A stretch of DNA of 63,682 bases, filler included, from Phoronis australis (Eukaryota > Animalia > Phoronida): NCBI GenBank assembly GCA_002633005.1. It is 6 parts of 6 records of this genome, joined end to end, with 100 filler letters (N's around TTAATTAATTAA, not from the genome) between each part and the next. Parts side by side here need not be neighbours in the genome. Positions count along the whole stretch, not along the records: positions 23,176 to 41,187 come from NMRA01000500.1; 5 more parts are not named here. One strand, given 5' to 3'. The position numbers were made by a program, and so were the translations under genes. This document shows, piece by piece, positions 835-41,187 of the stretch; positions within the stretch are counted from its first letter, which is position 1, and every line of letters begins with the position of its first letter. A model generated the notes under the pieces. It was not told where the DNA came from and did no database searches. It saw only the letters and a list, made by a program, of their open reading frames with translations.

Positions 835-3343
835 CAACTGATTTCCTAAAGGTGGTTTAACAAAACAAGGTTTGAGACTTAAACCTGGTCTTCCTAACTA
901 TGGTCTAATTTTAGCCCAAACTAGCATTTCACCAACGTGGCTTTAAAGTCTGAAAGCCTGGTTTTGTTAGGCAAGGGAGCCGGTTTAGTAAAAACAGGTT
1001 TGAAGTATCCAAGCCACCCTGCTGTGCCGATCTGGATTAACCTGACAAAAAACTGTTGAAGTTCTTCGATGAAACCATGATCACGTGGGTATACAATGGC
1101 ACACATTAGTAGAGTCAATGCATACACTTGCGAAAAAGGTCTAAAAGAATTTTTTTCACGAGGGAAATTAAAATATAGTGTCCGTGCCCAACACACGTAC
1201 ACACATTAAAGTATTGTACTCACGATTATCCGCAACATGATAAATATCTAAATTTATTTCCATGACATTTTAGTATTCATTTTTCGCGGCCATAAGGGGA
1301 GAGACTCTTACCCGACAACATTAAATCGGAGACCAATAGAGCTGGAACTCAGAAGAATCAGAAGACGCTGTCTTTAGTCAAACCCGTAGCGCTTACGACG
1401 ATGACGCTCTGCTCGACCAGTTGTATTCTGAGGAATCCACAGGGCACCATCCAGCCCGTACTGGTCTACACATAGGCGGATAAAAGGGGGTCAAGGGATC
1501 CGGACAACCTTTTTCTGTTGACTTTAGTGATATCAAATCTATAATTTTCAAATTGTTGACTTGGTCCCCCCTTTAAAACGTTTTTGACCGACCCCCCATT
1601 AACAATCGTGGATCCGCAATTGTTGCGTCTCGTGTCGTCGTAAAAATGAATATTGAAAATAGTTCATTTTCGCTCTCAAAATGCGTTGTAAATGCACGCC
1701 GCGGCATCATTCAGTTGCACCTATATCGTGCAAGTTGTCATATTTAGCAGTTAAACCTGGGTCTGACCAAGCCTAATTTTAAACCTGGTTTAAGATCTTA
1801 ACACAGGAATAGAGACCTACATTATTTGGTGTGATGAAAACTGACTTAGACCAGGTAAAACTGTAACAGTCGATTTCATAATGGTGGTTTAAAGTTAAAT
1901 CTAGACTTAGACCAGGTTTAAAGATAATCTGCGTATCATAAAGGTGGTTTAATTTTTAGACCAGTTGTTTTGTAAAACCTGGTTTAACTGTACTTTAGAC
2001 CAGGTCTAAGTCACTTTTATTTTCACCAATGACGTATATATTACTTAAACCCGCATTAAGATCTTAAAACAGATTTAACTTTAGACTTGGTCAGACCCAG
2101 GTCTAACACTATTAAATATGGAAAGACTTGTACGATATAGGTGCAACTGAATGATGCTGTGCAGTGCATTTACGACGCAATTCTAGAACGAGAACGGACT
2201 ATTTTCAATATTCAATTTTAAAACGACACAAGATCAAACATAGCAGGGAGGACAAAGAATATTTAAAGGGGGGATCGGATCGAGGATTTTTAAAAGGAGC
2301 GCCTGGGTCAACAATTTGAAAAATATATATTTAATACCACTAAACCCAAAGGAAAAGGGAGTCCGGATCCTTTGAACCCCTGAATTCGCCTCTACGTACT
2401 GAAGTGTGTCCTTTCCTATTTTCTCAGAATATGACGGTTGGAGCAGAGCGTCATCGTCGCGAGCGCTACGCATATGAATGAAAAGGCATCTAATGACTAT
2501 TCTGACCGAGTCCCATCTCAATTGGTTCCCGATATAAGGTTGCCGGAAAGGGGTCCTGCCCCAGTTGCGGATTTAGAGGGGGCAAAGGGGTCATGGACCC
2601 CAAAGTTCTCTCAGATTCCATCTGGTAGTTCGCGGGTGCGAATATCTGACGGGTAAAATCCTGGCTAATACTGTACCCTGCTCCCACTAACTCAAAATCC
2701 TGGATCTGCCACTGTGCCCCCCTTTGGCCGCAGAAAAGTAAAAATGATACGGGAATAAATATGTGCATTTACTGTGTAGCGGTTAATAGTGAACAAGTAC
2801 TTACATGCGTGTACTTTTGATGGACACAGACTGTATAAAATGAAAAATATCTCCTCATTGTATCCTAGATCTGCCACTTGGGCCCTCGCGTTTTTTTTTT
2901 GCATTTTTTCACTAGTGAAGTCTTGAAATTCTCTTTCTGGTCTTCATTCTGGATCAGTGTTTCTCCAAGCCTGCTGCTTACCTTAATTTGATTTGACAGT
3001 AATTTTCTTATGGGAGGCAAGATTTTTCCTCCTTAGAAAAACTTTTAGCCCTTTTCGCAAATGTCTGCTCTGTTTCTACTGCTGTGTACCATTGTGTACC
3101 TTCGTGACCAAGATTTCATTCAAGCACTTCAATAGTTTCCTTGTTGGGTAAATTCGGATCAATACAGTAGGGTGGCTTTTGGTACTTTAAGCCGAGTTTC
3201 ATGGTCTAACAAAACTCGGCATTCGGACTTATAAACCATGATGTTGAAAAATGAAAGTTACGTCTAAATATAGAGCAGGTTTAGGGAGACCATGTTTAGG
3301 TCTTAAATCTGGTTTTGGTAAACCACCTTCATGAAATCGGCTG
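835..3343. repeat. ~2.5-kb degenerate palindrome: inverted duplication of a composite Harbinger-like non-autonomous element
   Basis: 835-1155 matches the reverse complement of 3035-3343, 1160-1295 of 2715-2835, 1300-1620 of 2238-2560, and 1630-1860 of 1990-2235. The ends resemble Harbinger-MITE termini (ATTTC.TAAAGGTGGTTTAA / TAAACCACCTTCATGAAATCGG). Confidence 0.85.
2562..2714. mobile_element. hAT-like MITE inserted in the right arm of the palindrome
   Basis: CAGTTGCGGAT...GATCTGCCACTG termini. Absent from the equivalent position of the left arm (~1295-1305). Confidence 0.7.
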
Positions 3344-4229
3344 ATAATATATTATTAACATAACTATATAACCTAGTTCGCTCCAGTTGATCCCAGCATT
3401 AAGGTTGATATTTCGAGTCTGAACTAAGAAGTTGGAGGTTTACTCAAAATTTTAGCTCGAAAATAGGGGTCAACAAGTGCAAACTTGGACTAGAAACTCA
3501 CAGGCATAAATTCGAACTTAATAAAAATTGACAACTATTTTCACGTTGCAAAAAAAGTAGAACGGAAAATATTCCGAATTCGATTTCGACAACATAGATT
3601 AAAATCCCAGACTCTGGAAGGATATTTTTATCAAGATGTGGTTGCCAAGAAGAATGGATGATTTGGATGTTAAATGTATGGGACTTTTTAGTATAAAATA
3701 ACTTCCAAATCACCTAACCAAAAATGCAATATTTCGGACGCTATATTCGTGCACAGGGTTACAAGTATGTTTCGTTGTTCACTCAGGATTTCGCAATGAA
3801 CGTTTCTGCAGCTTGAAACGTATAAGTAGTAGTTTTGTTTAGTTGAGAGTAGAGTTTTGTTCCGAAGGTACGAACGTAACGGAATAAAGACTGTGAACGA
3901 TGAAAAGTGTCGTGCGTTTAACCAATTCGTATAACCGAAAACTTGCTCCCGAAAAACAGCCAGTAGTACATGTAGCTATGTGTAAATATAGTTAGTAATT
4001 TAGTAATCTTGGGATATTTTCATCTTATCTATTTCGTTCCATTGCCCTCCACATATCAATTGATTACAACATAATGATAAGAGTGCAAGGACTCTGTTGA
4101 GGATATTTTTCAATTCGTTTGCTTACATGTTTAGCAACATTGATCAGTATCTGGCCTCCTTAACTAAAATCAGTTGGTAGTAAGTCTAAATCTTCAAATT
4201 ACTAATTTCTGTCACTACGTAATTTCAAG

Positions 4230-23075: not shown

Positions 23076-23175
23076 NNNNNNNNNNNNNNNNNNNNNNNNN
23101 NNNNNNNNNNNNNNNNNNNTTAATTAATTAANNNNNNNNNNNNNNNNNNNNNNNNNNNNNNNNNNNNNNNNNNNN

Positions 23176-23298
23176 TTTCGTGCCTTCTTGGACTCTTTTG
23201 ACTGAAACTCTCCAAGCTTCTTGTAATCTGGTGTCTTTTGGAAACTTGTGGACGCCTTTCGATGATTTGCACCCCGGCACACAACAATAGTACGGCAT
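23176..23298 (-). CDS. THAP zinc-finger N-terminus of a DNA transposon ORF (P or ISL2EU/Harbinger type), cut by gap
   Basis: MPYYCCVPGCKSSKGVHKFPKDTRLQEAWRVSVKR fits THAP (C-x4-C...H.FP.D......W). Possible element terminus CAATGGGGCTATT at 23432. Confidence 0.8.
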
Positions 23299-24204
23299 AG
23301 TAAACGACGTAGTTTTACAAAAATTCGACGTTGTTACCATCTGTTTACATCTAGAAAGCGACGCATGCGCAATTCAATCACCACTAGTACAGCAGCGACA
23401 CCGCGAGGAGAATTCTCCGAATAGCCCCATTGCCGTGTTAAGAACTCAAACATGAAACAAAACCATGATGGATTTTGAAGGGAGCTTCAAGAGAACAAAA
23501 ACAAAAACACTTTTATTGATTAAAATACACATTTTCTTTCTCATTCTATTGAAAGTGGATGTTAGTTTATGTGTTCTAACCATTTCCAATCACACAGTAG
23601 TTTTATTGCACGTTGAATGTCATTAAAGTATGAATTTATCAGTGCTTACATTGTTCGGACTGCGCTTCTAACTGAGTATTGATTATTCACCGTTTGGAGC
23701 GCTAGTGTTTCGACCGGTAACCATTGCGGCGAATGGTAAAATGGCGGAGTGAACTCTCCTGCACTAGTACACTCCTTGGTTTGATCTAAAACTCGGTTTG
23801 CTGGTCTTTAAAATACTAAAAACATATAACGAAATCAAACCAGTTCCGACAATTTGTTGTGACATGTACCCAACCTCGTGGCAGGGAAAAACAGTTGATA
23901 GAGGAATAAACGGGAAAAGAAACTGTTCAGGTCAGGTGACGTAATCGCCAAAAGCCTACTCACAAGAGAGCACTTCAATTTTAGCAGTAGATCAGCGACA
24001 GAACGCCAATTTTCCAACACTGGTAGGCTAAATAATTTGGTTTACTCAAAGAAGAACGGGTAGCTTTTAGTGAAACTACTTTTGAGTCAAATATTATTCA
24101 GTCATTTCTACCTACACCGGTGCCAATCTGTAGATTTTGTGTACAGCTTTGACCTAGTCTAGCACAGATCTTGGTGATCGGGAATTTTGTCGGATCGGAG
24201 TCCT

Positions 24205-24280
24205 TGTCCTTGTTGAGTGGCCCTTAAAAGGGTCGTTGGTTGTAGGTATAGTGGGAAATGGTTCTTAAAAGAACAGTTGA
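24205..24280 (-). other. Two tandem histone-mRNA-type 3' stem-loop motifs, each one mismatch from consensus
   Basis: Minus strand: TCAAC-TGTTCT-TTTA-AGAACC-ATT (24260-24275) and CCAAC-GACCCT-TTTA-AGGGCC-ACTCA (24219-24234), followed by purine-rich CAAGGACAAGG. Confidence 0.5.
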
Positions 24281-25280
24281 ATAATTTAACATAAATCACA
24301 CAGTATACCATGCTCACTCAAGTACTGAAGGTCGTCTTCATTCAAGTTTTCATCTGGGAAGGTTGGATGAAAACAGAGGAGAGGACAATATCGATGCCGG
24401 ACAGTTGTAACACCTTTATATAAATGTTACCGTTCTCCAACGTTATCGCGAACCCTGCCTCTTTCAGTTCTTGTTCCTGGATTCAGAAGTAACCCTGAAC
24501 CATAGGGAAAAAGACATACAACGAAAACGAATCAAATTTTGAAAATCATCGCCTTCGTACGATTCCGTGTTGCTGTCGTCAGACTGATGTTCCTCTCCAA
24601 AATCAATGTCAAAATCGACGTTACATGTGATGGAAACTTGTGTCCTTTGTTTCTAACTTTTAACCCATTTTTTAAGAAAGGGGTGCACTGATTTTGTCTA
24701 ACGTTGATAGAGCATACATGTAACTTTTGTTTTTTTTACAATGCATTAATTGTGTTGAATGCATTCATATTAGGTGGCTTCATTCAGTTCAACAGAAAAT
24801 AAATTAAATGTAACACAATAAAGTTTTGAAAATAAATAGAACAGTAACAGGACTCCCTAAAAATCGAACTGTTTTCGAAAACTTTGCGCCATTGGTGATC
24901 TGATTGGTTCATGCATTTACGGCGGGAAAATAATAGACCAAGTATCGTGCACGTGTGCACTGTACCAACACTTTGTATCTTATTCTTATTTGGCCAATCT
25001 GTTGATACAGTAAATTTCCTTATTTATGCCCATCCAGATTTGACTGCAACTTCAGCTTGTTGGGTTCTATCATATATTGGGTTGGCGTTGGGACCCACAT
25101 GATGCTTACTCGAATGGGCTTCATTTTACCAAGTATTTCAAATTGAGGTGAAGTAAATAAACAAAGTGGGTGATTATCATCACCAGAATTCCATCATTAG
25201 TATCTTTTTCCGGGTGCTCAAATTTTCTGAGACTAGGGATTGTTAGATTTGTAAGGTAGAAGTGTTTCGCTAGATTTCCA

Positions 25281-27295
25281 GGGCCCGGTCTCCAATCTCC
25301 GTACTCAGACTCATACTCATACTCGAGATTTCATACACAAAATCGTGCTCACTGGAGTCGTACTCAAGAAAGCGTATCTAATGTTGCATTTCGAGTAGAC
25401 TCCAAACGTAATCAAATCTGACACTCATACTCGAGTTGCTATGGAACTCTTTATGATGTGAAATGCAAAATCACGCAAAGCCACGCTGATTCATCGCTCC
25501 CTATTGGAATAGACCACCCCAAAAACTAGGCCTACATTATCGTCTTCTGTCGCTACAACTACAAGAGTATGTCTATAATGTGGAATTCTGAGTGTTCTGT
25601 AACTGTTATTCATTTTTTAGTTTCAATAAACATTCTTATGCCATTTCTTTGATACATTTGACAATTATTAAGCTTTACTTCTTGAGTTCCTCACCCAGTC
25701 CCGAAAATGTCTTAAGAAATGTGTAACAGCTTATCACACATAGGCGGATTTAGGGGGGGGGGACCCAGGGGTCCCGCCCCCCCCCCTTGGCTGCCGCAAA
25801 AAAACAGTAAGAGCGTAGGGAATTGGTGAGTTTCTTAATTAACCCCGGTAATTAAAATTATACGGATGAAAAAAGATTTAAATGTGTGCAGTTTTAGTGT
25901 TGGNNNNNNNNNNNNNNNNNNNNNNNNNNNNNNNNNNNNNNNNNNNNNNNNNNNNNNNNNNNNNNNNNNNNNNNNNNNNNNNNNNNNNNNNNNNNNNNNN
26001 NNNNNNNNNNNNNNNNNNNNNNNNNNNNNNNNNNNNNNNNNNNNNNNNNNNNNNNNNNNNNNNNNNNNNNNNNNNNNNNNNNNNNNNNNNNNNNNNNNNN
26101 NNNNNNNNNNNNNNNNNNNNNNNNNNNNNNNNNNNNNNNNNNNNNNNNNNNNNNNNNNNNNNNNNNNNNNNNNNNNNNNNNNNNNNNNNNNNNNNNNNNN
26201 NNNNNNNNNNNNNNNNNNNNNNNNNNNNNNNNNNNNNNNNNNNNNNNNNNNNNNNNNNNNNNNNNNNNNNNNNNNNNNNNNNNNNNNNNNNNNNNNNNNN
26301 NNNNNNNNNNNNNNNNNNNNNNNNNNNNNNNNNNNNNNNNNNNNNNNNNNNNNNNNNNNNNNNNNNNNNNNNNNNNNNNNNNNNNNNNNNNNNNNNNNNN
26401 NNNNNNNNNNNNNNNNNNNNNNNNNNNNNNNNNNNNNNNNNNNNNNNNNNNNNNNNNNNNNNNNNNNNNNNNNNNNNNNNNNNNNNNNNNNNNNNNNNNN
26501 NNNNNNNNNNNNNNNNNNNNNNNNNNNNNNNNNNNNNNNNNNNNNNNNNNNNNNNNNNNNNNNNNNNNNNNNNNNNNNNNNNNNNNNNNNNNNNNNNNNN
26601 NNNNNNNNNNNNNNNNNNNNNNNNNNNNNNNNNNNNNNNNNNNNNNNNNNNNNNNNNNNNNNNNNNNNNNNNNNNNNNNNNNNNNNNNNNNNNNNNNNNN
26701 NNNNNNNNNNNNNNNNNNNNNNNNNNNNNNNNNNNNNNNNNNNNNNNNNNNNNNNNNNNNNACTGCTTTCGACGCTTGTTATGACTCGCCGACAAGGGAT
26801 TACAGTGCACCTGTTGCCAGGAATTGTAGAGGTAGAATGGCGGCCATAACATACAGTGATACGGCGGGTTAATATGGTGAAGAATGAGAAGATTTAAGAT
26901 GAAAACTATTATCTCTGAACTGAAATTGAAGTGCTGAGATACGGTAAGAGGACTTATTTTTTTAGATTTGCTGTGTTTCTTGGCTTCCTTTCGATATTTT
27001 GTTCTCTGGCTCGTATTTATTTTCGAGTATGATTTCAAGTACACTGCCATACCAAACTTGAAATTTGAGCATAGACTCCGAATTTTTACTCAAAATCGTA
27101 CTCGAAATAAAGATGAGATACACTTCAGTTCGAGTACACTCGAAAACTGAGTACGTGCTCGAAATTTCGAGTACAGCATTGGATTTTTCGAGTATGACAT
27201 TGAATACACCAAAGCTGAGTCTGTACTCGAGTTGAGTATGAAGTGTGAGTTTGAGCATGATTCGAGTCTGAGTACGGAGATTGGAGACCGGGCCC
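25281..27295. mobile_element. Harbinger-like non-autonomous element with 32-bp TIRs, spanning an N gap; contains a nested hAT-like MITE end at ~25740
   Basis: GGGCCCGGTCTCCAATCTCCGTACTCAGACTC ... GAGTCTGAGTACGGAGATTGGAGACCGGGCCC, with many TACTC/GAGTA subterminal motifs. The right end is repeated at 62011-62178. Confidence 0.85.
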
Positions 27296-28432
27296 TGGTC
27301 TGTGGCGTTATTTATACCGGACCGAAATTAAAAAAACAGACCTTTGTTTAAATCAGGAGCTGCATGATACACATTTATTAGACGTGCGCAGGCATTGCAC
27401 TGATCACTTGGAAACAGTTTTATGGTTTATTTTCTATAGTTAAACCAAGGTGAGGAGCTTGAAACCTGATTCAAGGCAATTTTAGGCAGTGGGATTTTCT
27501 GAAAAATGCTCGAAAGTTGACAACAAAGTTTGATAGCAATGGACTGCAGTTTTGTAGAAACTGTCATAGGTCACAGATTCGTCACAGAGCGTAAATTTGA
27601 TGAATTCTAGCTTACGATTTCACCTGTTTCGGAGACCGGGTTTCAACCACTTCCTGAAGCGGATTTTTCTAAGCGCCCTGGCCGCTTATTAGGGCGAATA
27701 CGGTAATATTTCAGAAGGGCGATACTCAGTATCCTTTATGCACGGGACCCTTTTGTTACATTAGGAGTGGGATTGGCTCATTATGTACCCTACAGGTGGC
27801 ATAGGACCTTACAAAACTGGTTGAAGAATTTTGTTTTCGTCATAAACGTTCGTTTGAATGGCTTAAGTTTGAAACTGTTAGGACATAAGGCGGAAATTTA
27901 AAATCATTTGTGCGCTTACAAAAATTTAACATAGAAGAATAAAAACAACCTTCACACCCCTCTGGTGTTCCTGTTCCATGATTTCAAAGAAGTTGGTTGC
28001 ATTTTCATAGACTACACTCGAGAGATTTTGTGCAGCATATGTTGTGTAACCTGCTGTTGAATTGCGAGATAGAGTTTGACTGGTCCAGGTGGTTATTTCT
28101 GAAGTATTAATGTAATCTTTATTTATGTTAAAGGTTTTACCAGCGTTCTATTTATTTGTACGCGAATGTGAATTTGTTGAAATCGCTGATCCAAATCCTG
28201 GCCAAATGTGCGCATTCTGCTGAGACCAACCGTCTGATCAGGGCCAGCGAAGAGTAATTTGGTTAATTCGCTCACTAGACTATGGCTCCTCGTAAGGACA
28301 GGAATTCATGAGTCACTACCTTTGGAAGAAATTTTGCGGACAATTGTCGTCAAAAAGTTTACCAGATAGTTTTCATCAAAACGGAGAAAAGAAAAATGGA
28401 TTTGTGAGGACAGGATTAAGTAGTAGAGCCTC

Positions 28433-28621
28433 TTAAAAACATTCATCTTCTAAGTGCCTGGAACAAACGTATAAAGTCTTATTGCTGAAACAAATGCCAT
28501 TCACGTTTACACAAGAAGTAAGCTTTTCTTCCCGATTATGGGGTCTTCGGATGGTATGGTAGCTAATTCCTTTGCATTTCGCGTGTGGGGCCGAACAACC
28601 GGTTACACAGTAGCCGACCAT
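28433..28621 (-). pseudogene. Degenerate THAP domain of a DNA transposon remnant (P-like)
   Basis: MVGYCVTGC...ISYH...LYVCSRHLEDECF* retains the C2CH ligands but lacks the conserved P/W spacing. CATAGACTATA-type terminus at 28771. Confidence 0.65.
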
Positions 28622-29079
28622 GATTAGCAGACGACGTACTTGCCGGAAATTGCACCAGAAAATTTAGACAGGTGTCGTCAGTGAATAATGACGTAAGGGC
28701 TTATGCGTAAGATCACAGATTTCGACCATTGAAAGTATATGGAGTTGGCGGTCCATGTACTATAGTCTATGATTAGATGTAATGAGATTAGTAACAGTTC
28801 ACATTGTTTTTGTTGCGTTCATGTATCTAACTTCTAGATAAACTGCCCGATACTCTTAATCTGTAACCAGTTTTAAGTTCTTAGCCGCGACACTATGATT
28901 CTATTTTTGTAATCCTTTAAGTCTGCACTGTCAAACGTACCTTTTTCTCCACAATTTTTTTATTTGTCAGTGATGTATCTCTTTGCTCTTTTCAAGAGCC
29001 ATGGTCTTGTTTCGCCCTCCTCCTCAACATCAACGTCCACGACTCTCTCACGTCTTGGATAGCAAAGTTTTTCAATATA

Positions 29080-29321
29080 TGTGCAAGAGTGACGTCCTGC
29101 AATTATAGTTCAATGACACGTTTACTTTTGTAGTATATTCAAGGTAAGGACACACCAAATACTCACCAAAAATTACAGCAGTGCAAATAGTCGACTTGTC
29201 AGTCTGAATACCACAAAGCTAAGGAAGCAGACGCTCTATTACGGACGCCAAGTCGTGTGTAAGTTTCCCATTGGCTGCCGCCGCCAGCCTTTGAGGGAGA
29301 CAACTCCACAGCTTCACAACA
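29080..29321 (-). repeat. Putative 3' LTR (~240 bp), preceded by a polypurine tract at 29322-29333
   Basis: Minus strand GGTAGGGAGGAA|TGTTGTGAAG...CTTGCACA; contains CCAAT, a G|GTGAGT donor (29166) and an AGTAAA poly(A)-like signal (29121-29126). The same GGGAGGAA|TGT junction precedes the clear LTR at 38074. Confidence 0.6.
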
Positions 29322-29724
29322 TTCCTCCCTACCGTATCTTTTGGAGAGGCGATCCAGCGTCCAGAATATCATGCCAAGGGAGAGGCGGTCCAACTTCCTG
29401 AATTTCTTCCCACCCCCCAAGGGATACAATCATCACCCGGAAGTGAGATTATAAAAACCCCGCGAAAACAATGTGGAGCACTATCCGGGCATAAGTCCAC
29501 AACCGCAAAAAACAAAACAATGATGAACCCTACCCGGATAATATGTGTTCATGCCCGCTTACCTTAACGTATACCCGATCGTATACGTTAATTGCCGACC
29601 CACACAATAAAACAACACATGTATAGTGAAACTATATAACCTCTATTACAAAAAACTTGGAAATTTTATGATTACAACAAAATTGAAATTCCATTTCCCC
29701 TCAACCCCCAATTATAAAAGCCAG

Positions 29725-30873
29725 CTAAATCCGAAAAAGTGTTTTTCCGTTCGCACACGTGCTATCTAATATCCGGAAGAGAGTTGTTTTCCGCAATTCC
29801 GCAACGCGATTGGCCACGATACCCAACATATGAGGATGTCCGGACATATGGGGTTGGCCCCGGAAATGCGACGAGTCTGTTTCAATCAGCAGCCGGTCCG
29901 AAGCGATCTGCGCGATAGCTTCCGCATGCTCCGGTGACGATTTCATGGAGATACTACTGATCGAAAAGTAGGTGTTTGGAAAACTTTCGGCCCACTCATG
30001 GACTTCCGACACCACCCCGGAAAAGCAGTGCAAGTGAATCCCGGTTTCACGCGGCAATTGCTCTCGAGCAATTTGCAACAGTAACCGCCACGCAGCATCA
30101 ATAGGCTCTACACCCTGGCGACGATCACGACAGTGTAGGATCACCGGTCGGCCCAAGCCTATCATGGGATTCGCCCACTCCCGGAACACGGCACTCAAGA
30201 AATTCGACTGGGTAGAAACATCGCTATCGCTCTTAAGATCTAACCCAACTTCTCCTAGCGCCACGACCCGACTATCCTCCAACAACCGAAGCATTTCACT
30301 GGGATCGGACCCCGTTGTTACTTTCGATGGGTGAAACCCGACCGCAATTCGGAAATTGGGATTCTCCAGAAACCCAATAGTCCTCCATACACGCGGATCG
30401 CAGTAAACCGCTACTCCACCCACAATGGACACTTCAACCGGACTGTCCACTGGTCGCTCCATAAAACACCGCCATGACTCCTTCGACAGTTGAGTATTCC
30501 GTATGCAACGATCAAAATGAAAGTGGGCGTCGAAACCGCAACTCATCTCCCGTTGTTTCTGCCGTAGCCTAAAACTCGCTAAAGTGCGTTGACGCACCGA
30601 TAACGATTCTGCACCCCCGGTCGCAGAATCCGCGGTTGGAAGCACCGATAACGTTTCCTCACCCACGGTCGCGGAATCCGCGGTTGGCTCCTCCGGGTCA
30701 GAGTCTAAGCTCGTGTCATCCGAAACACTCGAACCGCTATTCGCTTCCATGTCTTCCGCAGACTGGAGTACCACGCCCAAATCAGACCGGATCAGATCGT
30801 CCGACAACTCAGAAGGAATCCGAGTCAATTCCTTCAATATCGCGCGCAACTTCGCCGGTGCGATCTGCTCCAA
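29725..30873 (-). CDS. tatD: TatD-family DNase (amidohydrolase-fold metallo-nuclease) domain encoded within the retrotransposon; C-terminal part of a longer disrupted ORF
   Basis: Intronless 382-codon frame with DAHFHFD, AVGFHP, VVALGEVGLD, PVILHCRD, HLHCFSG, RLLIETDS and a C-terminal N...LF, preceded by an acidic/Ser linker. Confidence 0.9.
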   Translation of the reverse strand: MEQIAPAKLRAILKELTRIPSELSDDLIRSDLGVVLQSAEDMEANSGSSVSDDTSLDSDPEEPTADSATVGEETLSVLPTADSATGGAESLSVRQRTLASFRLRQKQREMSCGFDAHFHFDRCIRNTQLSKESWRCFMERPVDSPVEVSIVGGVAVYCDPRVWRTIGFLENPNFRIAVGFHPSKVTTGSDPSEMLRLLEDSRVVALGEVGLDLKSDSDVSTQSNFLSAVFREWANPMIGLGRPVILHCRDRRQGVEPIDAAWRLLLQIAREQLPRETGIHLHCFSGVVSEVHEWAESFPNTYFSISSISMKSSPEHAEAIAQIASDRLLIETDSSHFRGQPHMSGHPHMLGIVANRVAELRKTTLFRILDSTCANGKTLFRI

Positions 30874-31595
30874 GAGTCAACGCAACACCACGTGCAAACA
30901 ACACGGCAACAGGCGACTGAAGTTGCTTTACAGCAAAAAACGCCTCAGGAACACCATTCACACAAAGATACTAACGCGATGTTAGCGGCCGGCGTGATTG
31001 ACCTGATCTCCGATTCGGCACGCCACCGACGTCGGACCATCTCATCTAGTTGCGGGATCGACTGCAACTCAAGAGCTTTCAGTATTCGCGACAACACAAA
31101 AGCTCGCGTCTTCGTGAGTCCGACACTCACTTCTCTTACGAACTGGATGTCCGTCACCACGGTTGGCAGATGACACACCCAGGCATGGCTGCCTAACGCT
31201 ACAGTCAACACGATGTTTTAAATTGAGACCGGGCACCGTTTACCCCGCGACTCTCGGCGACCATAGGGCGACGCGCGCTGACTGGTCTCACTCCTCCGCA
31301 TAACACTCGACATCCGACGTGAGGTCTCTTGGCGGTCGAACCGTTCCACCATAACCGGACTCCAGAATGGTTGGTACACCCGGTACATGTCCAACCAACG
31401 CACGTCTCTCTTCACAACCGCGATCTTTTTCTGGCGCCGCACCAGCCCCGCCGCAAACAAGGAATCGTTCCCGAAAAGACGAACCAGCTCCGTGAACAAC
31501 CAGTTCGGCTCGCACACAAGCCCACGACTGTTGGCAAGACCAACATCCCGGATGAACGTGGCCTTTCTCACCTCGATATGGTGCAGAGAATCCAT
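30874..31595 (-). pseudogene. Disrupted N-terminal part of the TatD-containing ORF, with a C2H2-like motif
   Basis: ORFs 31595-31218 and 31211-30945 share a frame and are separated by one TAA: RCPVSI*NIVLTVALGSHAWVCHLP (C-x4-[C]...H-x4-H-LP-like). Further frameshift and stop near 30880-30960. ATG 31595 is the first ATG after the acceptor at 31618. Confidence 0.6.
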
Positions 31596-31766
31596 TTCGT
31601 ACAGATTTCAAGCTAATCTGAAATGAAACACTAATTCAGAATCAATAATCTGTCTTATCCAACGACAGAATTTTTTAAACGATCTGAAAAAAAAAACAAT
31701 CGAAAAACAACTCTAACCCAATAAATAACGGCAACCCAATTAATAAACAAATAACCAAGAACATAC

Positions 31767-31910
31767 TTAATCGTCACACAGCGAGCAACGGAAACTCGGC
31801 AAGCTCGCTTCCTCTTCTTGTGTCAAGCCGAAACACGCCACATAGTACCACAGGCGGCAATCGTCACACTGTACCATAGGCGAGCCGTCGTTTGGTCCAT
31901 GACAAATACA
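31767..31910 (-). pseudogene. PHD finger at the C-terminus of the Gypsy integrase, offset by a 1-nt frameshift
   Basis: CICHGPNDGSPMVQCDDCRLWYYVACFGLTQEEEASLPSFRCSLCDD* is a C4HC3 PHD pattern with His replaced by Tyr. It joins pol at KLY if one base is restored. Confidence 0.85.
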
Positions 31911-32512
31911 TATAATTTTACGTTCCGCGCCAATGCCTTAATCTGCTCTGCTTGAAGCAAATCATTATCAGATCTTAATGTAACAATCCAATCCGGCAAA
32001 GCATGGTCATTACATTTCCTTAGTTTATCATGGTTATAAGTTCCCACAGATCTTTTAAAACGTACCTTAAACAACCGGTCCGACAATTTTGCCACAATGA
32101 TGCCCGGATCGGACCACGGTGGACATAATTTCCGCGATTTACCCACTGGAACCGCATCGCGCCACACCCTAACTAGATCCCCGACGTTGTAAACGAATTT
32201 ATTGACCTTTAAATCATAATCCCTATTCGCGCGCATCTGACTCAAACCCAATTTTTCCCTCGCAACTTTATGGGCCGCAGCCATTGATTCCATTAAGTGA
32301 TTCGCGAAATCCGATGAACCCTGGGGCAACATTTCAAACCCTGTCGCGAACATCACATCAGCAGGAGTCATAACCTCCCTTCCCAGCATCAATTTGTTCG
32401 GTGTAAATCCCGTTGACCGGTTTACACACGCATGAATAGATCCCGCAATTTGCGGGAGGTAGAGATCCCAATCGTTCCGACTGTCGCGTACGTAACACCG
32501 AATCGCGATCAT
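31911..32512 (-). pseudogene. pol: Ty3/Gypsy integrase C-terminal region (pol fragment)
   Basis: DWDLYLPQI...NRSTGFTPNKLMLGREV...YD...YNVGDLV...KLCPPWSDPGII...YNHDKLRKC, i.e. the post-DDE helices plus a GPY/F-like module. Confidence 0.88.
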
Positions 32513-33087
32513 TAAAGCCCTTCTCTCAGGCGTTGTTAATCCTTATTACATGGTTAGAAGATGTTATAAGGATCCAAGAAGTACCTACCCCATAACTAAT
32601 ACACGATCCGTACTCGAAAACAGTTTAAATGAACGCGCCACTCACGATTCGCACCCGAAGAAACACCGCCATTTTGAACTTGCCGCGAACCCGGAAGTAC
32701 AATTCATTCAGGAACCCAGGCCGAGAAAACGCCGTCAGTGCGACTGGAGCAGAGCCGGTACTGTTACCAGCCAGCAAACGGGGATGAAAAAATCGACAGC
32801 GCGCCTTAATTTTGATAAAATCAAACTACGGACAATTTTATGGAATTTGCTGAAGAAATGTGGCGAATAAATTTTGACAGAAATTATTTTGCTAGACTCG
32901 GGACCGCAGCCTATCGGACCCGGTGCGGATCGAGACCAGACACTGGCGAACGGTAAATGCATGCGGTTGCAAGCTGTTTTGTCGAAGTAAAATGGTCAAA
33001 TGATAAATGCTGCATATATTCAAAGGTAGTTTCAGACACTTGCATGAAATTACGGGCTGCGGGTTAGTCCTGTGTCACACTGCTGGC

Positions 33088-34187
33088 CACAAACACAAAA
33101 ACACGAAAATTGAACTATGTTTCTTTTTTGTAGCAACGTTTGTCAAAATGTATCAACGTTAAATCTTCACAAATTACAAAGTAGCCGATTGAACATGCCT
33201 TTCAGTTCAGCAAAAGTCGACATTGTAGGTGCCGCCAGAAATGAGACGATCGAAGTCCAACGGGAATTGTGAGCACATTTATCACTTAATGAGTAACAAC
33301 TGCGAGGCTGAAATTTGGTGAACACTGCTAAATCGTGCAGAATAGTAAGTAAAGATATGTCTAACTAAATTTTACCGTAATTTGTTGACGAAAACAATTT
33401 ACACAAAGTTTTAAACTCGTAACTCATCCCGCTGTCCTCCAATATGGCCCACGCGATCCAAACAAAGTGACCCAAATTTCGCCACAAAACTTGCAATNNN
33501 NNNNNNNNNNNNNNNNNNNNNNNNNNNNNNNNNNNNNNNNNNNNNNNNNNNNNNNNNNNNNNNNNNNNNNNNNNNNNNNNNNNNNNNNNNNNNNNNNNNN
33601 NNNNNNNNNNNNNNNNNNNNNNNNNNNNNNNNNNNNNNNNNNNNNNNNNNNNNNNNNNNNNNNNNNNNNNNNNNNNNNNNNNNNNNNNNNNNNNNNNNNN
33701 NNNNNNNNNNNNNNNNNNNNNNNNNNNNNNNNNNNNNNNNNNNNNNNNNNNNNNNNNNNNNNNNNNNNNNNNNNNNNNNNNNNCACAAACACAAAAAACA
33801 CGAAAATTGAACAAAGTTTCTTTTTTGTAGCAACGTTTGTCAAAATGTATCAACGTTAAATCTTCACAAATTACAAAGTAGCCGATTGAACATGCCTTTC
33901 AGTTCAGCAAAAGTCGACATTGTAGGTGCCGCCAGAAATGAGACGAAGTCCAACGGGAATTGTGAGCACATTTATCACTTAATGAGTAACAACTGCGAGG
34001 CTGAAATTTGGTGAACACTGTTAAATCGGGCAGAATAGTAAGTAAAGATATGTCTACCTAATTTTCACCGTAATTTGTTGGCGAAAACAATTTACACAAA
34101 GTTTTAAACTCGTAACTTATCCCGCTGTCCTCCGATATGGCCGACGCGATCCAAAAAAGTGACCCAAATTTCGCCACAAAACTTGCA
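33088..34187. repeat. Direct repeat of a ~410-bp unit on both sides of an N gap
   Basis: 33088-33496 and 33784-34187 are near-identical with several SNPs and indels; either a tandem array or haplotype overlap. Confidence 0.85.
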
Positions 34188-36258
34188 AAAACTTTACACT
34201 GCTTGCTCCGATTTTGATACTTTTTCGATTTTTACTGATTAGAATGTACTACCTTTCCGATGATAGCAAAGTACTTTTTAAAAACGAGAAAAAAAAGAAA
34301 ACCGTAAAAAATAGGTTCGACCCATATTGGTTCCTAGGTTCGACCGGCCTACATAAGGAACTAAACACCAATGCTACTTTAACATACTAAGTACGCGTAA
34401 CATTCCAAAAAACATCAACGACCACTAACTACAAACTATAAATACACTACATATGCAAACGAATCGCGAGATATTACTAACAAAACAAAATAATGAAGAC
34501 TTTTCGAGTAAGCGATAGCACATTCAGTTACAAGGAAAAAATGGCTTCTTTCAGGACAAGTTCCTGAACTGATGAGCCGGAAATGTGGGTACGGAAATAA
34601 CCGATGACAACCGGTAACCATACGCTCAGAGAGAAGGGTCAAATACTGTTCAAAAATCGCTTTTGGCAAGAAAGGCGAAAAGAATATAAAGAAAGGGTGT
34701 CGAAAATAGGATTTTATGTAGTAAGTATTTTCGGATACTGGAACCACATGGGCAGTTTGAGAGAAGGACTTAAACAGATTTTAGATATCTTAATGTAGAA
34801 GTTAGTGCTTCGTTAAACACACGGAAATTTAATGATACAAGAAAATGGGAAGACTGGAAATGTGTTTTTGAAACATGAGGGGACCCAGAGATTTGACCAG
34901 ATGCCAGAACAGAAACTTAAGTAGTACTTTTTAACTTCGAAGTAACAATGAAATGCTTTCTCGTTATTTTTATGCACAGCTCTGTACGTTGTTGTGTTGT
35001 GTTGTGTTGCGCTGTGTGTATATTTGTATATGTATTTGTCTTTTGTAATAAATGTATTAATTGTGAAAAAAAAAGATTTTAGATATCAAGTTTCAGAGCG
35101 CGTGCGTTTGATAATAACGTGCAGCATTTCACCTTGGCGACTACCCGAGGCGGAACTTCACTCTAAAGAAATTTTTTAGTGCAATGAAAGCAGTATGCCA
35201 TGAAAATTTTCAAACGGTCTGGCTTTCAAGGTAAGATTGACACCATTGGTTAAAAAGGGTGTTGCCTGGAAACGAGTTTCACACAAGTTTCAAAAAGTAG
35301 CAAGGATGTTTGAAGTTTGAAATGACTTAAACAATTTTAAAATTCGCCGCTTGATGGCTTTATTACGGCGTGCAATCATGTTAGTGGTGAATGGTTACCG
35401 TGGAGGAAAGAAATTTAACCTTCAATGCATACGCCTGTATGGTTTTAGGATATTGAAAAACGGTTCCAAAGAAGATGGTCCCATTTGGTGCCAAAAAAAA
35501 AACGTTTCTCAAGCTATACGCCGTACAAAAAATGCTGACTGTTGACTATCGTATCTAATAAGCGTGGTTAAACTGTCAAGTTAATATTCCAAATGACCAA
35601 AAAGAGCTCTTTTAGGACCAAGACCCGCCAGACACAAGAAATCGTTTCGTCACCGCTGAAAAGATTACAGGTGTACAAATTGAGGATCGTTGTCGGCAAT
35701 GAAATGTTTTGTAAGGTGTTTTATTTTATGTTCACTCATGTGTTTGTGTTTGTGATGACACGCACACTCGGTGATCTACTCTTTCAGGTATCACCCGACG
35801 AAACACATGTTTATAGATTATATCATAGATTACTGTAGTCTATGATTATATGAAAGTTTGTTGAACAAACTACTAAAGGCAAAAAACAGTCGGTTATTCA
35901 ATGCAAAATATGAAACACTAGAACACATTAAACACCTCAGACATACTTCTCCTTAGTTCCAGGATATTCAACTGTCTGGGATTAGACGCTGGCCAAATGA
36001 TGTGCTGAAACGAGCAAAATAGCGAGAGCAACAACTATATGGCTATGTTTGCTATGACGTTGTAACTAAAGAACATAGTATCGTTTCGTCACCTGGACGG
36101 CATGGCATTTGTACCACGAGATGCGGTAAATATCAACCCCGAAGAATTTCTACCAGGTACCTAGCCAGCCAGCTAGCTGTATGAAGACTATCGTCAAAAT
36201 ACAGTAGGTACCACCGTGTGTTAATCTTCCATATACCCTGAAATTGCACACAGAGAGC

Positions 36259-36445
36259 AGTGGCGGATCTACATTTTCAGTAAGGGGGGGTTAGGATTCC
36301 CGCAAAGGTCGAATCCGAGGCGCGTGGCGCCGAGCGGAGGGGGAGGTCGGGAGGGGGGTAAACTCCACTCCCGTGTAAGACAACTTTTTGTTTTTGTAGC
36401 CAAACAGTGAAATGTCCATGCATCCTGGTACGTTTCTGGCACTTA
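36259..36445. mobile_element. hAT-like MITE fragment (CAGTGGCGGATCTA...)
   Basis: Same terminus family as 587, 2562, 56431-56442, 58447 and 62209. Confidence 0.55.
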
Positions 36446-37392
36446 ACGTGTCCCTGGAGTTTTTCTAAGATAATTAAAAACCCTTCTCGATTTCGTCACA
36501 TGAACTTGGCTCATAAGTTTCGTGAAACCATATTTGTGCACATCTGGGTATGAGTCACACCACCAGCAAACATTTTTGTTGGAACATCTGCTTACACACA
36601 CCTTTTTAGCATACGAAAAAGTGTGGTCTGTATACAGGGGTTTAGACAACTACCAAATATCCATGAGCATAAGGAGCGTAAAAACTTGAATACCAGATGA
36701 TCGCAAAAGCCTCGAGCTGTTTAAGAATGAAGACCTGTACTGTTAGTCCGGAAATAAACATGTGTCCTGTCTCGTTACGAGAAAAACTGGCGAACGATGG
36801 TGCTCAGCTCATAGTCTATTATTAAAAGCGACAATAAACAATTAAGTATCACTTTATTAAGCTGAATCACGTTGACAACAATTGAAAAACGTAAAATGTA
36901 TCAGGAAACAAATCATCTGAAAACAGTTTCACGAAACCAAAACACTCTGTAGGCTTACACCGTGGTGAAAAGATATACAGGAGCATTTCGCAGAGGGACC
37001 AGATGTACACTGAGAGTACACAAAAACTCTGGCCTGGTCCGTCACGAGACCAAAAGTACAGCTGTGCTTATTACCCCTATAAAAATAGTCGATCTGTCGC
37101 GGGACCAAACAGTACTGGCTGAGATAAATAGTTTTACAAGGCACACTTTGGTAAAAAACATCACAAGACTAGTTCGCCGAAGGACCAGAAGTACACTGAA
37201 ACTCGATATCTACACAAATCAAGCTGGCCTGGTCCGTCGCGAGACTTAAAGCGTACTTTGCAAAAACAATTTGAATTGAAAACTTCTCTCTAGACACTTT
37301 TTAATCCCCAGTGGTTGCTCATACGTGTAGTTTACACATCTGGTGGTCAACTGCTGCGAGAGGTTGTCTAGGAAAAGGTTTTCGCACCGTTC

Positions 37393-38074
37393 TGTAGTAC
37401 TCACTGGAAGAAACAAGTATTGAGTACAGATTTAACTACGCCCTACGTGAAATAAGATTTTGGATATGAAGCAGATACTCAGGTGGAAATACAAACCAGA
37501 ATCAGTTTCTGTGCTCTTGTAGACCCTCTGCTGTACTGGGTAAATTTGGCATGTCTGAAAATAATTTCTACTTCGTTTTCATTGTAAACAAGCATAAAAA
37601 ACGACATTATTACAAACTGTGTATAATTATAACTTATTACCTGGGTGTTTCTCAAGGAACGTTGGTCCTATCTTTCTGTTGACTAGACTACCGAGGAATC
37701 TGTACATCGGATCCAATGGTTTGCCGCTCTTGGAACCATTCTGTACCCATACATCTTCGACGTTTGTTCCTGTTGTAATAAAGAAAGGGTCGGCTGGCTA
37801 AGCAGACACACAGGTTCGGGCCTATTAACACGGTGCAAGAGAAAAGTCCGGAGTATACTCACATTACGTCCATACAGGACGGCAGCGAACTCCAGAAGGC
37901 CCAGACGATCTTGTCACGTGGTCTTGAAGGGTGACTGGTCACGTGATAGAAGGGTGACCTCGGCTGGGCTCTTCTCGCGTTAGATGTCGCACCAGGCCAA
38001 GACCAACATTGTTAACAAAAGGACATCACAACATAGAGACGCCACAGCCGAGACTGACGTCGACATTTACTACA
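37393..38074 (-). mobile_element. Gypsy-type 3' LTR (682 bp) with adjacent PPT and residual internal sequence beyond 38075
   Basis: Inverted termini TGTAGTA...TACTACA. On the minus strand the PPT TTTAGGGAAGGGAGGAA abuts TGTAGTAA. Confidence 0.82.
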
Positions 38075-39589
38075 TTCCTCCCTTCCCTAAAGAAAAGGAG
38101 TGGAGCCCTTATAGCAAATGGCGAACGTCACTCCCAACACCTCAACATAAACCCTTGACCTAAGACAACAGTGACAAGACTTTAAACCCTATAACTAACA
38201 TGATGAGGAGTGACCTTGTAAAGTAAGAATTACTGTTTAAAATTTAATCTAACTATTCACCCCCCCTACCAAAAAACAAATACTAATTAGACACACAGTC
38301 ATAGCATATGTCCACTATAGTAGTCGAACTTGACTAAAAAATAAATAAAATAAAATATGCTCCACTAATACCAGTACCAGGGAGCATAGAATTCCTGGAC
38401 TATGCTATGACAACACTCTGATTGTTGGTGATGACCTGGCGAGAGAATATATACATTTTTTTTTTAAAACTAAAAAACTGAACAGCAAAAGCATACTGGC
38501 CATAAAATGAGTATTCATTACTTTAGTAGTGATGCACCGAGATATAAAATGATATAGTCTTTAATAACATACATAGACTATATAGGAAACTTAACTTAAT
38601 ATACAAAAATAAAATATATAGTAACAACTAATACATAATACTATAGAAAGTATAGTCTTAAATATATAAATAGACTATATATATGGTATGAAAACTTATA
38701 AAAAATATACTATATAGTTTTAACGAATAACACTACTATATAAAAATGATGGACCAGTACGCCACTTAAGAATGATTCCATATAAAAACCATATGAAAAT
38801 GAAAAATCACTATATACTCAAAAATTCATACAGAGCTAATACTTTGTGCATGTGTTGGGATGCTGGCCCAAAGTACACAGCTGCAATATTTGCACTCAAT
38901 GACCTTTGGTTACCGAGATATGACCTATTTGGCTATAAAGGCATATTTTGCATTTTTTCGTGTCAGTAAAACTGCATTTTTTGAACAGCAAAAAAATCAG
39001 ACTTGGAAAACTAGCGACAAAGTTTGACATTGATGGTCATAAAGACTCATGTAAGGTTAGTAAGAAAATGAAATTTGCAACTCATAGGTACAATTAAATT
39101 TCCAGCAGGGGAGAAAACTCCGAAACCACTTTTCAGGCCAGTCAGTAGTGGCAAGATGTTGCTTAACCTGCCTGCTATATCGGAATATATTTGAAGTTGA
39201 AATTCTCTGTGTAGACACTTCTAAGATTGAACTTTGATAATTGCTTTTAAAAAAACTTGTCTCTTATATATTTAGTGCTAAACGTGGTCCTCGAATTTGG
39301 GCATTTTTGTGATGTGGCCTTACTCTGACTGACAAGAGAATTGAGGCTACTCTTTTAGTTTAGAGATATCACCTAAAATATATGATCGAATATCAACAAT
39401 GCAATATCACAAAAAGTTAAATTTCACTTTTGAGACCCCAATTTTCTAAAACACTCCATGCTTTGTTTAACCTTACCAATAGCACTTTCGGGTTCGAGAT
39501 TACATGCACTTCCTGTCACTGCGAAGAATATGGAGGAATTTCCTTCTTGTACATTTGGTTAATTTTCGTTACATAAGTGTAATCGCGGA

Positions 39590-41187
39590 GGAAATGTGGC
39601 CTTCATTAGCTGTGTTAAAGACGTCAGAAGTCATCTGAAGTCGTGAAAAGTGCCACAGAAGTTTGAAAGTATATCGGAATTACAGCTGATTCTTGCCAGA
39701 GCTGGAGATAGGAGGTTGGACTGGCAAACCAATGGAAATGCGGCGTGATATATTTTACACATCGACATGAGTTTGGACTTGGCTTTAGACAAAAATTGAC
39801 GTGCTGTTATCCAGAACACAAAGCATATTGTCAGAGGGATAAACCAGGAACAAGCAAAACAGGATCTGATGTCATCTCTCACTCCACACATCAGTTTCCG
39901 TGAAGCAGAGTCCGACTGGTTTGGAAAAAAGGATGTCATGGCACGTGGCGGCTTGTATCACAAAGAAAGGTGAAAGCCACCAGATAAAAATAAATCCTCA
40001 ATTAGTATTCAACGTGTTACAAAGTAATTCTCAGATGTGCTCAATATTAAACAGAAAGCCAGTGATGAACAATGTTGTTGCCTTTACCTCTTTTTAGTAT
40101 ATTGATTTACTGTAACAGTACAAGATACGGGGAGTGTGCACTTAATATCTTGTCTTTTTCTCGCTATTTGCCAACAAAAGCTTGACAGTGATGCATTCTT
40201 TGTCTCTTAGTAGATTTTGCACACAAACCTTCATTTTACCTGAAGCCATTTTGTACTTATTATGGATGATTTTCATATCTTTGTGAAGGGGAAATTTCCC
40301 CCTCCCTAGAAATGTTTTGAAGGAGCTACTAATATATTATAACGTGTTGAGACGAACCATGTTTGATGTTGAGTGGTGTGATTGCGGTTTAGGTGGTAAT
40401 AAGATGTAATAAGGTAGTTCTTTAAACTAGCTGACCTATTTGTGTTACATAATTGTTGTATTTCAGGTACATGCTTACATCCATACTCTAGATGCCTGCA
40501 AACAAGACTTTTTCGCTGTTTGCTGTTTAACGCTAGATGTGCTAAGGCAGGTGAAACCTAGGGATCCACAAATAACAATGCAAATTGTTACCATTCAGCC
40601 GCCCTTCTGATTCATTTGTTCTACATATCTGGTAACACCGGCATCTCCATTCTGCGTTACGACTTCAGTGAAAGTCAGAAGGGAAAAGACATCTGTGACA
40701 GGAAAATCGCACAGTTGAAGTCCAATGCCAAGTACTTCGTCAATGAAGGCAACAAAATGCAGTCGACCTGAAATATGCGCTAGAGTCTAGAAGAGGTGTC
40801 AAAGGCTGTTATGTGTCGGCCTGTAGTGTGGATGCCCCAAAGGTCCTTTCCAAGCACAGTATCCCAGGGATAAGTTTGCTGACAAACTTTGAGTATTCCG
40901 CGGATGGCATTCGAGCATGGAAGGCCTATAGAGTAGGGGAGGGAAAACTTGTCATCAACAAATCATGTAAACTGTTGCCTCTGAAACTAAAAGTCTTGAC
41001 CTTGCAACACTCGAGTGTTTTACAACTCCAAGGGTTGAGTCGGGGCTGGTATCCAGTGAACGTCATACGAAGTTCACATGCACACACTATGGGTGCTCGA
41101 AATCTTTTCCGACAGATGCTGAGCTAAATGAGCACTTGGATGTTGGTGCTCATTCATCATCCCTCCAGAACGAGAATCAGTAGAATC
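39590..41187 (+). pseudogene. Decayed, intron-containing DNA transposase, probably Sola3-like
   Basis: Fragments ELQLILARAG, HIVRGINQEQAKQD, FREAESDWFGKK(G)MSWHV, KQDFFAV, NANCYH, YDFSESQKGKDICDRKIA and IPGISLLTNFEY...RAWKAYRVGEG, with stops and frameshifts. Superfamily assigned from recalled motifs. Confidence 0.65.

Follow-up and report, generated by a model that had tools for sequence, protein, structure and literature searches.

The window examined here is a stretch of 63,682 nucleotides (nt) of DNA from the phoronid Phoronis australis (assembly GCA_002633005.1), of which positions 23,176–41,187 come from record NMRA01000500.1. It holds the 3′ end of one Gypsy retrotransposon, in which, on the minus strand, an integrase tail is followed by a PHD finger, a spacer, a third open reading frame (ORF3), a 3′ untranslated region (UTR), a polypurine tract (PPT) and a long terminal repeat (LTR). 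The original prediction had read the same order from the sequence, and it is borne out by the sequence itself and by matches to PF00628 and PF01026. ORF3 ends in a TatD domain, and the element very probably represents a Gypsy lineage of marine invertebrates with a conserved third gene that ends in a TATDN2-like nuclease. The relatives used for comparison (numbered loci with the prefix L) have their context in eukaryotic contigs inside symbiont metagenome-assembled genomes (MAGs) and metagenomes. The features of the element, with the evidence for each in brackets, are the following.

31922..32521, minus strand: C-terminal half of a Gypsy integrase, the 5′ part of the element being missing (tblastn, 43–49% to pol of L002, L006 and L009; alignment)
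31770..31916, minus strand: PHD finger and the stop codon that ends pol (PF00628, E = 1.5e-8, 31916–31773)
31596..31769, minus strand: spacer of 174 nt with two splice-acceptor-like sites, AG ending at 31684 and 31618 (sequence)
31296..31595, minus strand: start of ORF3 and an N-terminal domain of ~90 residues common to the family (alignment)
30870..31295, minus strand: basic R/S-rich stretch, then a CCHH zinc-finger-like motif and a helical domain (family profile, E = 6.6e-5 with X at the stop codon; tblastn pieces)
30541..30869, minus strand: acidic low-complexity linker (translation)
29725..30540, minus strand: uninterrupted, intronless TATDN2-like TatD domain (PF01026; residues HxH, C, H, E, H, HC and ExD mapped; tree)
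29343..29724, minus strand: 3′ UTR (sequence; other copies in read contigs cover it)
29322..29342, minus strand: PPT (relatives show the same pattern of A-run and G-run directly before TG)
29129..29321, minus strand: 3′ LTR, TG...CA (TG at 29321; splice-donor-like GTGAGT at 29166; read-depth peak in the bin 29141–29287)

ORF3 of the window runs from an ATG at 31595 to a stop codon at 29725 on the minus strand (1871 nt, about 624 codons). An in-frame stop codon at 31220–31218, within the zinc-finger-like motif, breaks it, as do two or more frame changes at about 30960–30870. This length agrees with the ~620 codons first proposed for it; the spacer is longer than the ~150 nt given at that time. 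The last 383 codons are open, the TatD domain is full length (PF01026 positions 1–253 of 253, E = 8e-33), and residues H118, H120, E209, H248, H283, E332 and D334 are all in place. The GC content of the element (0.52–0.55) and its observed-to-expected CpG ratio (1.2–1.3) differ from those of the flanks (0.39 and 0.75–0.82), so that an intronless TatD domain with kept metal-binding motifs and the GC- and CpG-rich composition of its element, as initially described, is what the measurements and the residue mapping give. The PHD finger has lost one zinc ligand and lies in a different frame from the integrase tail; in the relatives it is in frame with pol. With this frame change, the stop codon and frame changes in ORF3, and no gag, reverse transcriptase (RT) or second (5′) LTR within the window, the copy is dead. 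One read contig equals 30439–32378 without any difference (the run may be the assembly's own source sample), and the breaks are therefore real and not assembly errors. Summed read depth over the 3′ half of the TatD domain, the UTR and the LTR (125–316) is far above that of single-copy contigs (11–21), which indicates several diverged copies in this genome.

Linkage of ORF3 to pol

Besides the window, 13 elements carry pol directly before the same ORF3. A scan led by TatD returned 18 loci, eight of them of the window's type; L002, L006 and L009 comprise a whole gag-pol-ORF3 arrangement, and L008 and L004 the end of pol before ORF3. L003 was left out of the pol-linked count, its only RT piece being 42 codons long and inside its ORF3. 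A scan of 9 of 64 metagenome parts added L022 and L023, which are among five eukaryotic-type loci of the 80 kept, the remaining 75 being of non-eukaryotic type as judged by tblastn score and lack of pol. Two further scans were blind to TatD. All seven loci found through the integrase carry ORF3, and three of these are new. The RT-led scan gave 28 loci, with 16 in the lineage (RT identity at least 59%): the seven that reach past the integrase all carry ORF3 (three new), one, on a permuted contig, has a TatD end, and eight are too short. TatD was not seen in the 12 more distant RT-selected loci, several of which are too short to tell.

The integrase tail of the window is 41–49% identical to the integrases of TatD-bearing relatives, as against 24–32% to other Gypsy elements; the tail alone gave no match in a Pfam search, and the branches of an integrase tree were long and its resolution poor. 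Across the 13 elements, integrase and TatD identities covary (Mantel rho = 0.59, with 0 of 5000 permutations as high), as expected if ORF3 was inherited together with pol. The further elements and the scans blind to TatD thus agree with the earlier proposal of a Gypsy lineage that carries a TatD nuclease as a standing accessory gene, and in full-length relatives (L002, L006, L009 and others) the ORF lies after pol and before the PPT. That the TatD ORF got there by chance, as a retrocopy or nested insertion of no use to the element, is scarcely conceivable. The broken state of the window copy and its absent 5′ part might suggest it, but this reading is already contradicted by the same order in the 13 other elements, by purifying selection, by the covariation with the integrase and by a conserved splice acceptor.

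The pol genes of L002 and L009 show the Ty3/Gypsy order of protease, RT, RNase H and integrase, plus the PHD finger (Pfam), and are preceded by gag with zf-CCHC and PNMA/retrotrans_gag matches. L100 combines a host-like flank, a 5′ LTR and a TGG site resembling a primer-binding site (PBS) with a PPT followed by a 3′ LTR, the two LTRs being 99% identical over 94 bp, and PPT-LTR-PBS junctions occur in collapsed contigs of L006, L003 and L103; none of the loci spans the two outer junctions of a single complete element. The gag genes of L002 (1024–3336) and L009 (1294–3231) start with a helix-hairpin-helix-like segment (PF12836, E = 0.003–0.005, below the cut-off) and follow a long AT-rich 5′ leader of ~1–1.8 kb. 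The RT catalytic motif in the lineage is FLDD (L002:4416–5165, L009, L103, L022, L023, L106, L109, L111 and L115) and not the usual YxDD, which is present in the more distant Gypsy elements L117, L118 and L120. In translation, L118 also has a different post-pol ORF (3181–4014) with C2H2-like zinc fingers, after a pyrimidine-rich, CAG-like stretch.

Viral contigs contained one phage-linked bacterial TatD and no RT relative. A search for pol-ORF3 fusion proteins (1576–4500 residues) returned none at E = 1e-30, which is weak evidence. Two very long matches, P0186 and P0197, were rejected as fusions, both being host TATDN2-type proteins.

The ORF3 protein and the descent of its nuclease

The relatives share one build, with a long N-terminal region, the CCHH zinc-finger-like motif, a helical domain with an HWR motif, a linker and a C-terminal TatD domain. 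The 150 best representatives (50% identity) include 91 in which TatD is preceded by 150 residues or more, and the profile of the middle domain matches 76 of these 91; ORF3-type proteins from Mytilus coruscus, Pecten maximus and Lingula anatina are known as proteins alone. Nine ORF3s that were checked are open from ATG to stop codon and encode 666–1093 residues. The alignment of the N-terminal domain has invariant L, Q, A and W residues, and the window copy diverges furthest in it (16% to the alignment's first row). A model of the middle and TatD domains of the intact L102 protein reached a mean predicted local distance difference test (pLDDT) value of 94.7, with Foldseek matches to TatD proteins at E = 2e-14. 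The middle domain alone (~145 residues, near-invariant C, C, H and H) was modelled with a pLDDT of 92.8. It gave no Foldseek match at E = 0.001, a best Z-score of 3.0 among 48,161 chains and no usable Atlas match, by which a new fold is not yet proven.

No signal peptide or membrane segment was detected in 11 intact proteins (maximal 19-residue hydropathy 0.9–1.6, and at most 0.39 near the N-terminus), so that ORF3 occupies the env slot without being env. TatD is the sole Pfam domain matched, and neither a DEDDy/RNase D domain nor a J-domain was found in ORF3.

The catalytic residues were counted over 126 representatives, after 37 of 318 sequences had been dropped as the domain could not be cut from them. 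HxH and E are present in 126 of 126 and ExD in 125, at ~30% overall identity. This near-invariance speaks against a reading in which the function lies in the N-terminal and zinc-finger/helical domains, as a trans-activator or RNA-export factor, and TatD is mainly a nucleic-acid-binding module; the conservation of the two non-TatD domains across the family would fit it, and we rate it as highly improbable. ORF3 shows purifying selection, as judged from the ratio of non-synonymous to synonymous rates (dN/dS). In the close pair L005/L006 the ratio is 0.13 for TatD (35.5 synonymous and 17.5 non-synonymous changes over 261 codons), 0.19 for the middle domain and 0.32 for the linker, in keeping with the value below 1 that had been anticipated among copies. 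L009/L103 gave 0.15, near saturation, and L005 against the broken L024 gave 0.29; four of the eight TatD pairs are saturated for dS, and a fifth has a dS of 5.6.

The source of the nuclease had been given simply as TatD. That much stands, and both tree and cysteines point more specifically to a TATDN2-like source. In an IQ-TREE analysis of 62 domains, which holds no TATDN1 or TATDN3 rows, the transposable element (TE) sequences form a clade of their own (support 97/92; 27 rows including the window) apart from host TATDN2 from sponge to primate (99/98), as expected by the original prediction, and the two together are separated from 14 bacterial rows (100/99). The TatD domain of the window falls outside the animal TATDN2 clade, and long branches are present. 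Two cysteines, C538 and C656, have been named as particular to TATDN2 (PMC10711561; the papers cited here by PMC number are drawn on for part of their text). Their equivalents, with numbering checked on primate TATDN2 rows, are found in 118 and 113 of the 126 representatives and also in the window (YCDP and HCF), as are those of E593, E705 and D707 in 126, 125 and 125 representatives. In 24 bacterial rows the first cysteine is not among the four commonest residues, and the second occurs in 10. The residues agree with a TATDN2-like source.

Animal TATDN2 (PMC10711561, PMC10085689) thus resembles ORF3 in its HxH class, in a C-terminal TatD domain after a long disordered region, in both cysteines and the three acidic residues, and as the nearest cellular clade. 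It differs in that the ORF3 nucleases form a separate, faster-evolving clade, read FHLDR rather than CHLD after HxH, and are intronless and inside LTR elements, and the N-terminal and zinc-finger/helical domains of ORF3 are absent from 119 of 120 proteins of the TATDN2 set. The simplest reading would be one early capture of a host TATDN2-type gene.

Two proteins, P0276 (Patiria miniata) and P0006, join a TE-type zinc-finger/helical domain to a TatD domain that resembles host TATDN2 much more closely. The approximately unbiased test does not reject their placement with the TE clade (p = 0.075), which neither shows nor excludes it, and they are possibly a link to the capture that has evolved slowly, or else a domesticated copy. 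Many TATDN2-like proteins of ~330–550 residues from corals, sponges and others (P0223–P0322) have a CCHC knuckle, some in clusters of up to 246 members, and ticks have several TATDN2-like paralogues.

Expression and possible function of ORF3

Upstream of the ORF3 ATG, at a distance of 1–22 nt, all 14 elements examined have a pyrimidine tract and YAG (11 of 11 in a first count, and 3 of 3 found after the rule was fixed), the ATG of L009 having been chosen by alignment and not as the first ATG. The same rule is satisfied by 210 of 1219 background ATGs (17%). In the window, the second acceptor-like AG of the spacer (31618) is 22 nt upstream of the ATG. The LTRs have a donor-like site near their 3′ end, which in seven of the eight relatives where both could be placed is ~40–58 nt from that end. 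ORF3 is likely expressed from a separately spliced message, like env, given the acceptor upstream of its ATG and the donor in the LTRs. Env-bearing Gypsy elements (errantiviruses) and retroviruses, in which env is expressed from spliced RNA, likewise have a third ORF between pol and PPT with an acceptor before its ATG; ORF3 differs in having neither signal peptide nor membrane segment and in encoding a nuclease, and no envelope function is implied.

Use of the LTR donor is suggested by a junction in L020 (242–592 and 3851–4040), where two identical ~142-bp LTR-like copies flank a TatD ORF of the family; the upstream copy breaks off precisely at the GTGAGT donor, and a CHRAC-16-like coding piece (E = 0.003) is joined to it there. 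The join resembles a spliced LTR-host chimera copied back to DNA, and by eye the L020 stretch seems to interrupt an endonuclease gene of a long interspersed nuclear element.

For the function, we tentatively propose an RNase that acts in the nucleus and removes R-loops or structured RNA where copies of the element itself lie, a reading to which we give slightly less than an even chance. The donor near the 5′ LTR end would be spliced to the acceptor before the ORF3 ATG, so that the protein is made apart from Gag-Pol; the basic stretch would then carry it into the nucleus, the zinc-finger/helical domain and disordered linkers would bind nucleic acid, and the TatD barrel would trim the RNA strand. 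The predicted outcome is that CpG-rich copies stay transcribable and that nascent RNA usable by silencing pathways is removed. In R-loops and hairpins, the RNA is degraded by human TATDN2, an enzyme whose DNase activity is slight and whose binding depends on its disordered N-terminus (PMC10711561). We favour a nuclear, trans-acting RNase because the catalytic set is retained in ORF3, its long linkers are rich in R/S/P and its zinc finger often follows a basic stretch, and because the human enzyme acts on R-loops and hairpins. Processing of RNA:DNA hybrids during reverse transcription, one of the roles first put forward, is a less likely option, since pol already encodes an RNase H and the human enzyme shows minimal activity on simple RNA:DNA hybrids (PMC10711561).

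An unlikely but serious alternative is a DNA-directed enzyme, a 3′-5′ exonuclease on single-stranded DNA or an apurinic/apyrimidinic (AP) endonuclease, which would trim the ends of complementary DNA (cDNA), repair abasic or uracil damage in it, help to close integration gaps or destroy dead-end cDNA sensed by the host. The integrase itself processes 3′ ends, and a protein made from a separate spliced message has no built-in means of entering the particle, both of which argue against such a role. The closest solved folds of the TatD domain are YcfH-type DNases, the HxH-class TATDN3, YcfH and YjjV have activities of this kind (PMC10085689), and TATDN2 nicks catenated DNA (PMC10711561); the nearest cellular clade is nonetheless TATDN2, whose human member is barely active on DNA. 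A cytoplasmic silencing suppressor, which would act by breaking down small RNAs or hairpin precursors in the way suggested for rotifer DEDDy ORF3s, seems to us quite improbable. It would face PIWI-interacting RNAs with methylated, trimming-resistant 3′ ends, the basic stretch and PHD-bearing integrase of the element point to chromatin, and no result here bears on small RNA. What recommends it is that human TATDN2 is a 3′ exonuclease and endonuclease on hairpin RNA (PMC10711561) and that Rodriguez et al. raise a silencing role for the DEDDy ORF3 (PMC5408684).

Several points count against the proposed lineage, its descent from TATDN2 and the nuclear RNase. Two MAG records that share a sample label account for 11 of the 13 pol-linked elements, a third source has a near relative (L024, 83% to L005), and independent hosts number about three including the window. 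The TatD ORF of L020 stands between its LTR-like copies without gag or pol, and the genomic context of the 150 representative proteins is seen only where they match loci. The TE clade is sister to host TATDN2 and not nested in it; the tree lacks TATDN1 and TATDN3, its bacterial rows were picked by likeness to the query, and FastTree (281 rows) gives no support for the grouping of TE and TATDN2 sequences (0.06). In the acceptor count, elements that are related to one another do not stand as independent cases. Three RNA runs contained no LTR-to-ORF3 junction reads, at an RNA depth over ORF3 of 0–5 and from diverged copies, and in two of the three there was no RNA on the N-terminal part of ORF3. 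Some copies have a weak basic stretch upstream of the zinc finger (2 K/R in 15 residues). The TatD domains of the elements are ~30–35% identical to anything, and substrate choice could have changed; other HxH TatD enzymes are exonucleases on single-stranded DNA and AP endonucleases (PMC10085689).

Known systems and neighbouring sequences

LTR retrotransposons with a non-env enzymatic ORF3 are known, and what is apparently new is a TATDN2-like nuclease in that slot. The closest described case is the DEDDy ORF3 of Juno and Vesta from bdelloid rotifers (PMC5408684), Gypsy-type elements in which ORF3 after pol is a putative 3′-5′ exonuclease with intact catalytic residues. The fold there is RNase D-like, as opposed to a TIM-barrel TatD domain with two further conserved domains that is lineage-wide and under purifying selection. 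The mollusc and annelid Gypsy clades MolGy, PolGy, CsRN1 and C-clade (PMC6238403, PMC8556966) share hosts and superfamily with the TatD-bearing lineage, which is probably one of these RT-defined clades. Neither 'TatD' nor 'PHD' occurs in the main texts of these two papers, nor 'TatD' in those of PMC5408684, PMC6431247, PMC6338049 and PMC12440569 (supplements apart). The part of PMC12709183 covered makes no mention of transposition or retro-elements, and PMC6962438, in the part covered, merely lists a TATDN2-like ORF inside the squid Hox cluster. An LTR retrotransposon lineage with a TatD ORF3 is thus apparently undescribed in the open literature, where no account of a TatD-bearing Gypsy family was found in the texts covered; Repbase, Dfam and subscription journals lie outside this scope, and family annotations in them may predate our description.

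Accessory genes of LTR retrotransposons reveal which host pressure the elements answer. TATDN2 has only recently been shown to resolve R-loops, and a transposon-borne relative would, if the proposal is true, tie R-loop metabolism to retrotransposon survival in a way testable with many intact natural variants. The family also supplies a confidently modelled domain of ~145 residues without a solved relative. It further explains many misfiled proteins, among them 'uncharacterized' RefSeq models (Lingula, Pecten), 'tatD' (Mytilus) and 'TatD family hydrolase' in MAGs of Sedimenticola and Thiodiazotropha; the MAG entries appear to be host retrotransposon contamination. The GTDB records JBEVXV01 and JBEVXT01 (Sedimenticola MAGs), FXLX01 (SUP05) and NZ_JABGC* contain many eukaryotic LTR retrotransposon contigs, as host or plant contamination. 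In its widest form the interpretation is speculative and, taken whole, rather doubtful: an ancient Gypsy lineage of molluscs, brachiopods and perhaps echinoderms would have given up env for a spliced accessory gene that unites a TATDN2-derived R-loop RNase with a zinc-binding helical domain whose fold is new, would strip RNA from its own loci and so escape silencing, and would account for many invertebrate 'TATDN2-like' models and symbiont-MAG 'TatD' genes.

At the LTR side, the TG...CA repeat after the PPT was correctly foreseen, with TG at 29321; its 3′ end, first placed at 29080, is probably at 29129. We prefer 29129 because read depth drops past the bin 29141–29287 and because of the donor-to-end spacing in relatives: the window donor would be 37 nt from an end at 29129 and 86 nt from one at 29080. 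A moderate repeat at 28780–29130 (summed depth ~125–140, several contigs) lies past the LTR, meets a very high-copy repeat that ends at 28771–28773, and could belong to a longer LTR or be a repeat in its own right. At the other side, the truncated integrase adjoins an unrelated high-copy repeat (32512..33083, no strand assigned), where contig depths add up to more than 100,000 and loose ends lie at both 32512 and 33083. Further on, a ~370-bp segment is duplicated across an N gap (33097–33465 and 33794–34158), possibly as an assembly artefact. Finally, two short ORFs of the window (28433–28663 and 23128–23373) start, as read by eye, with Cys motifs that we take to be THAP-like.

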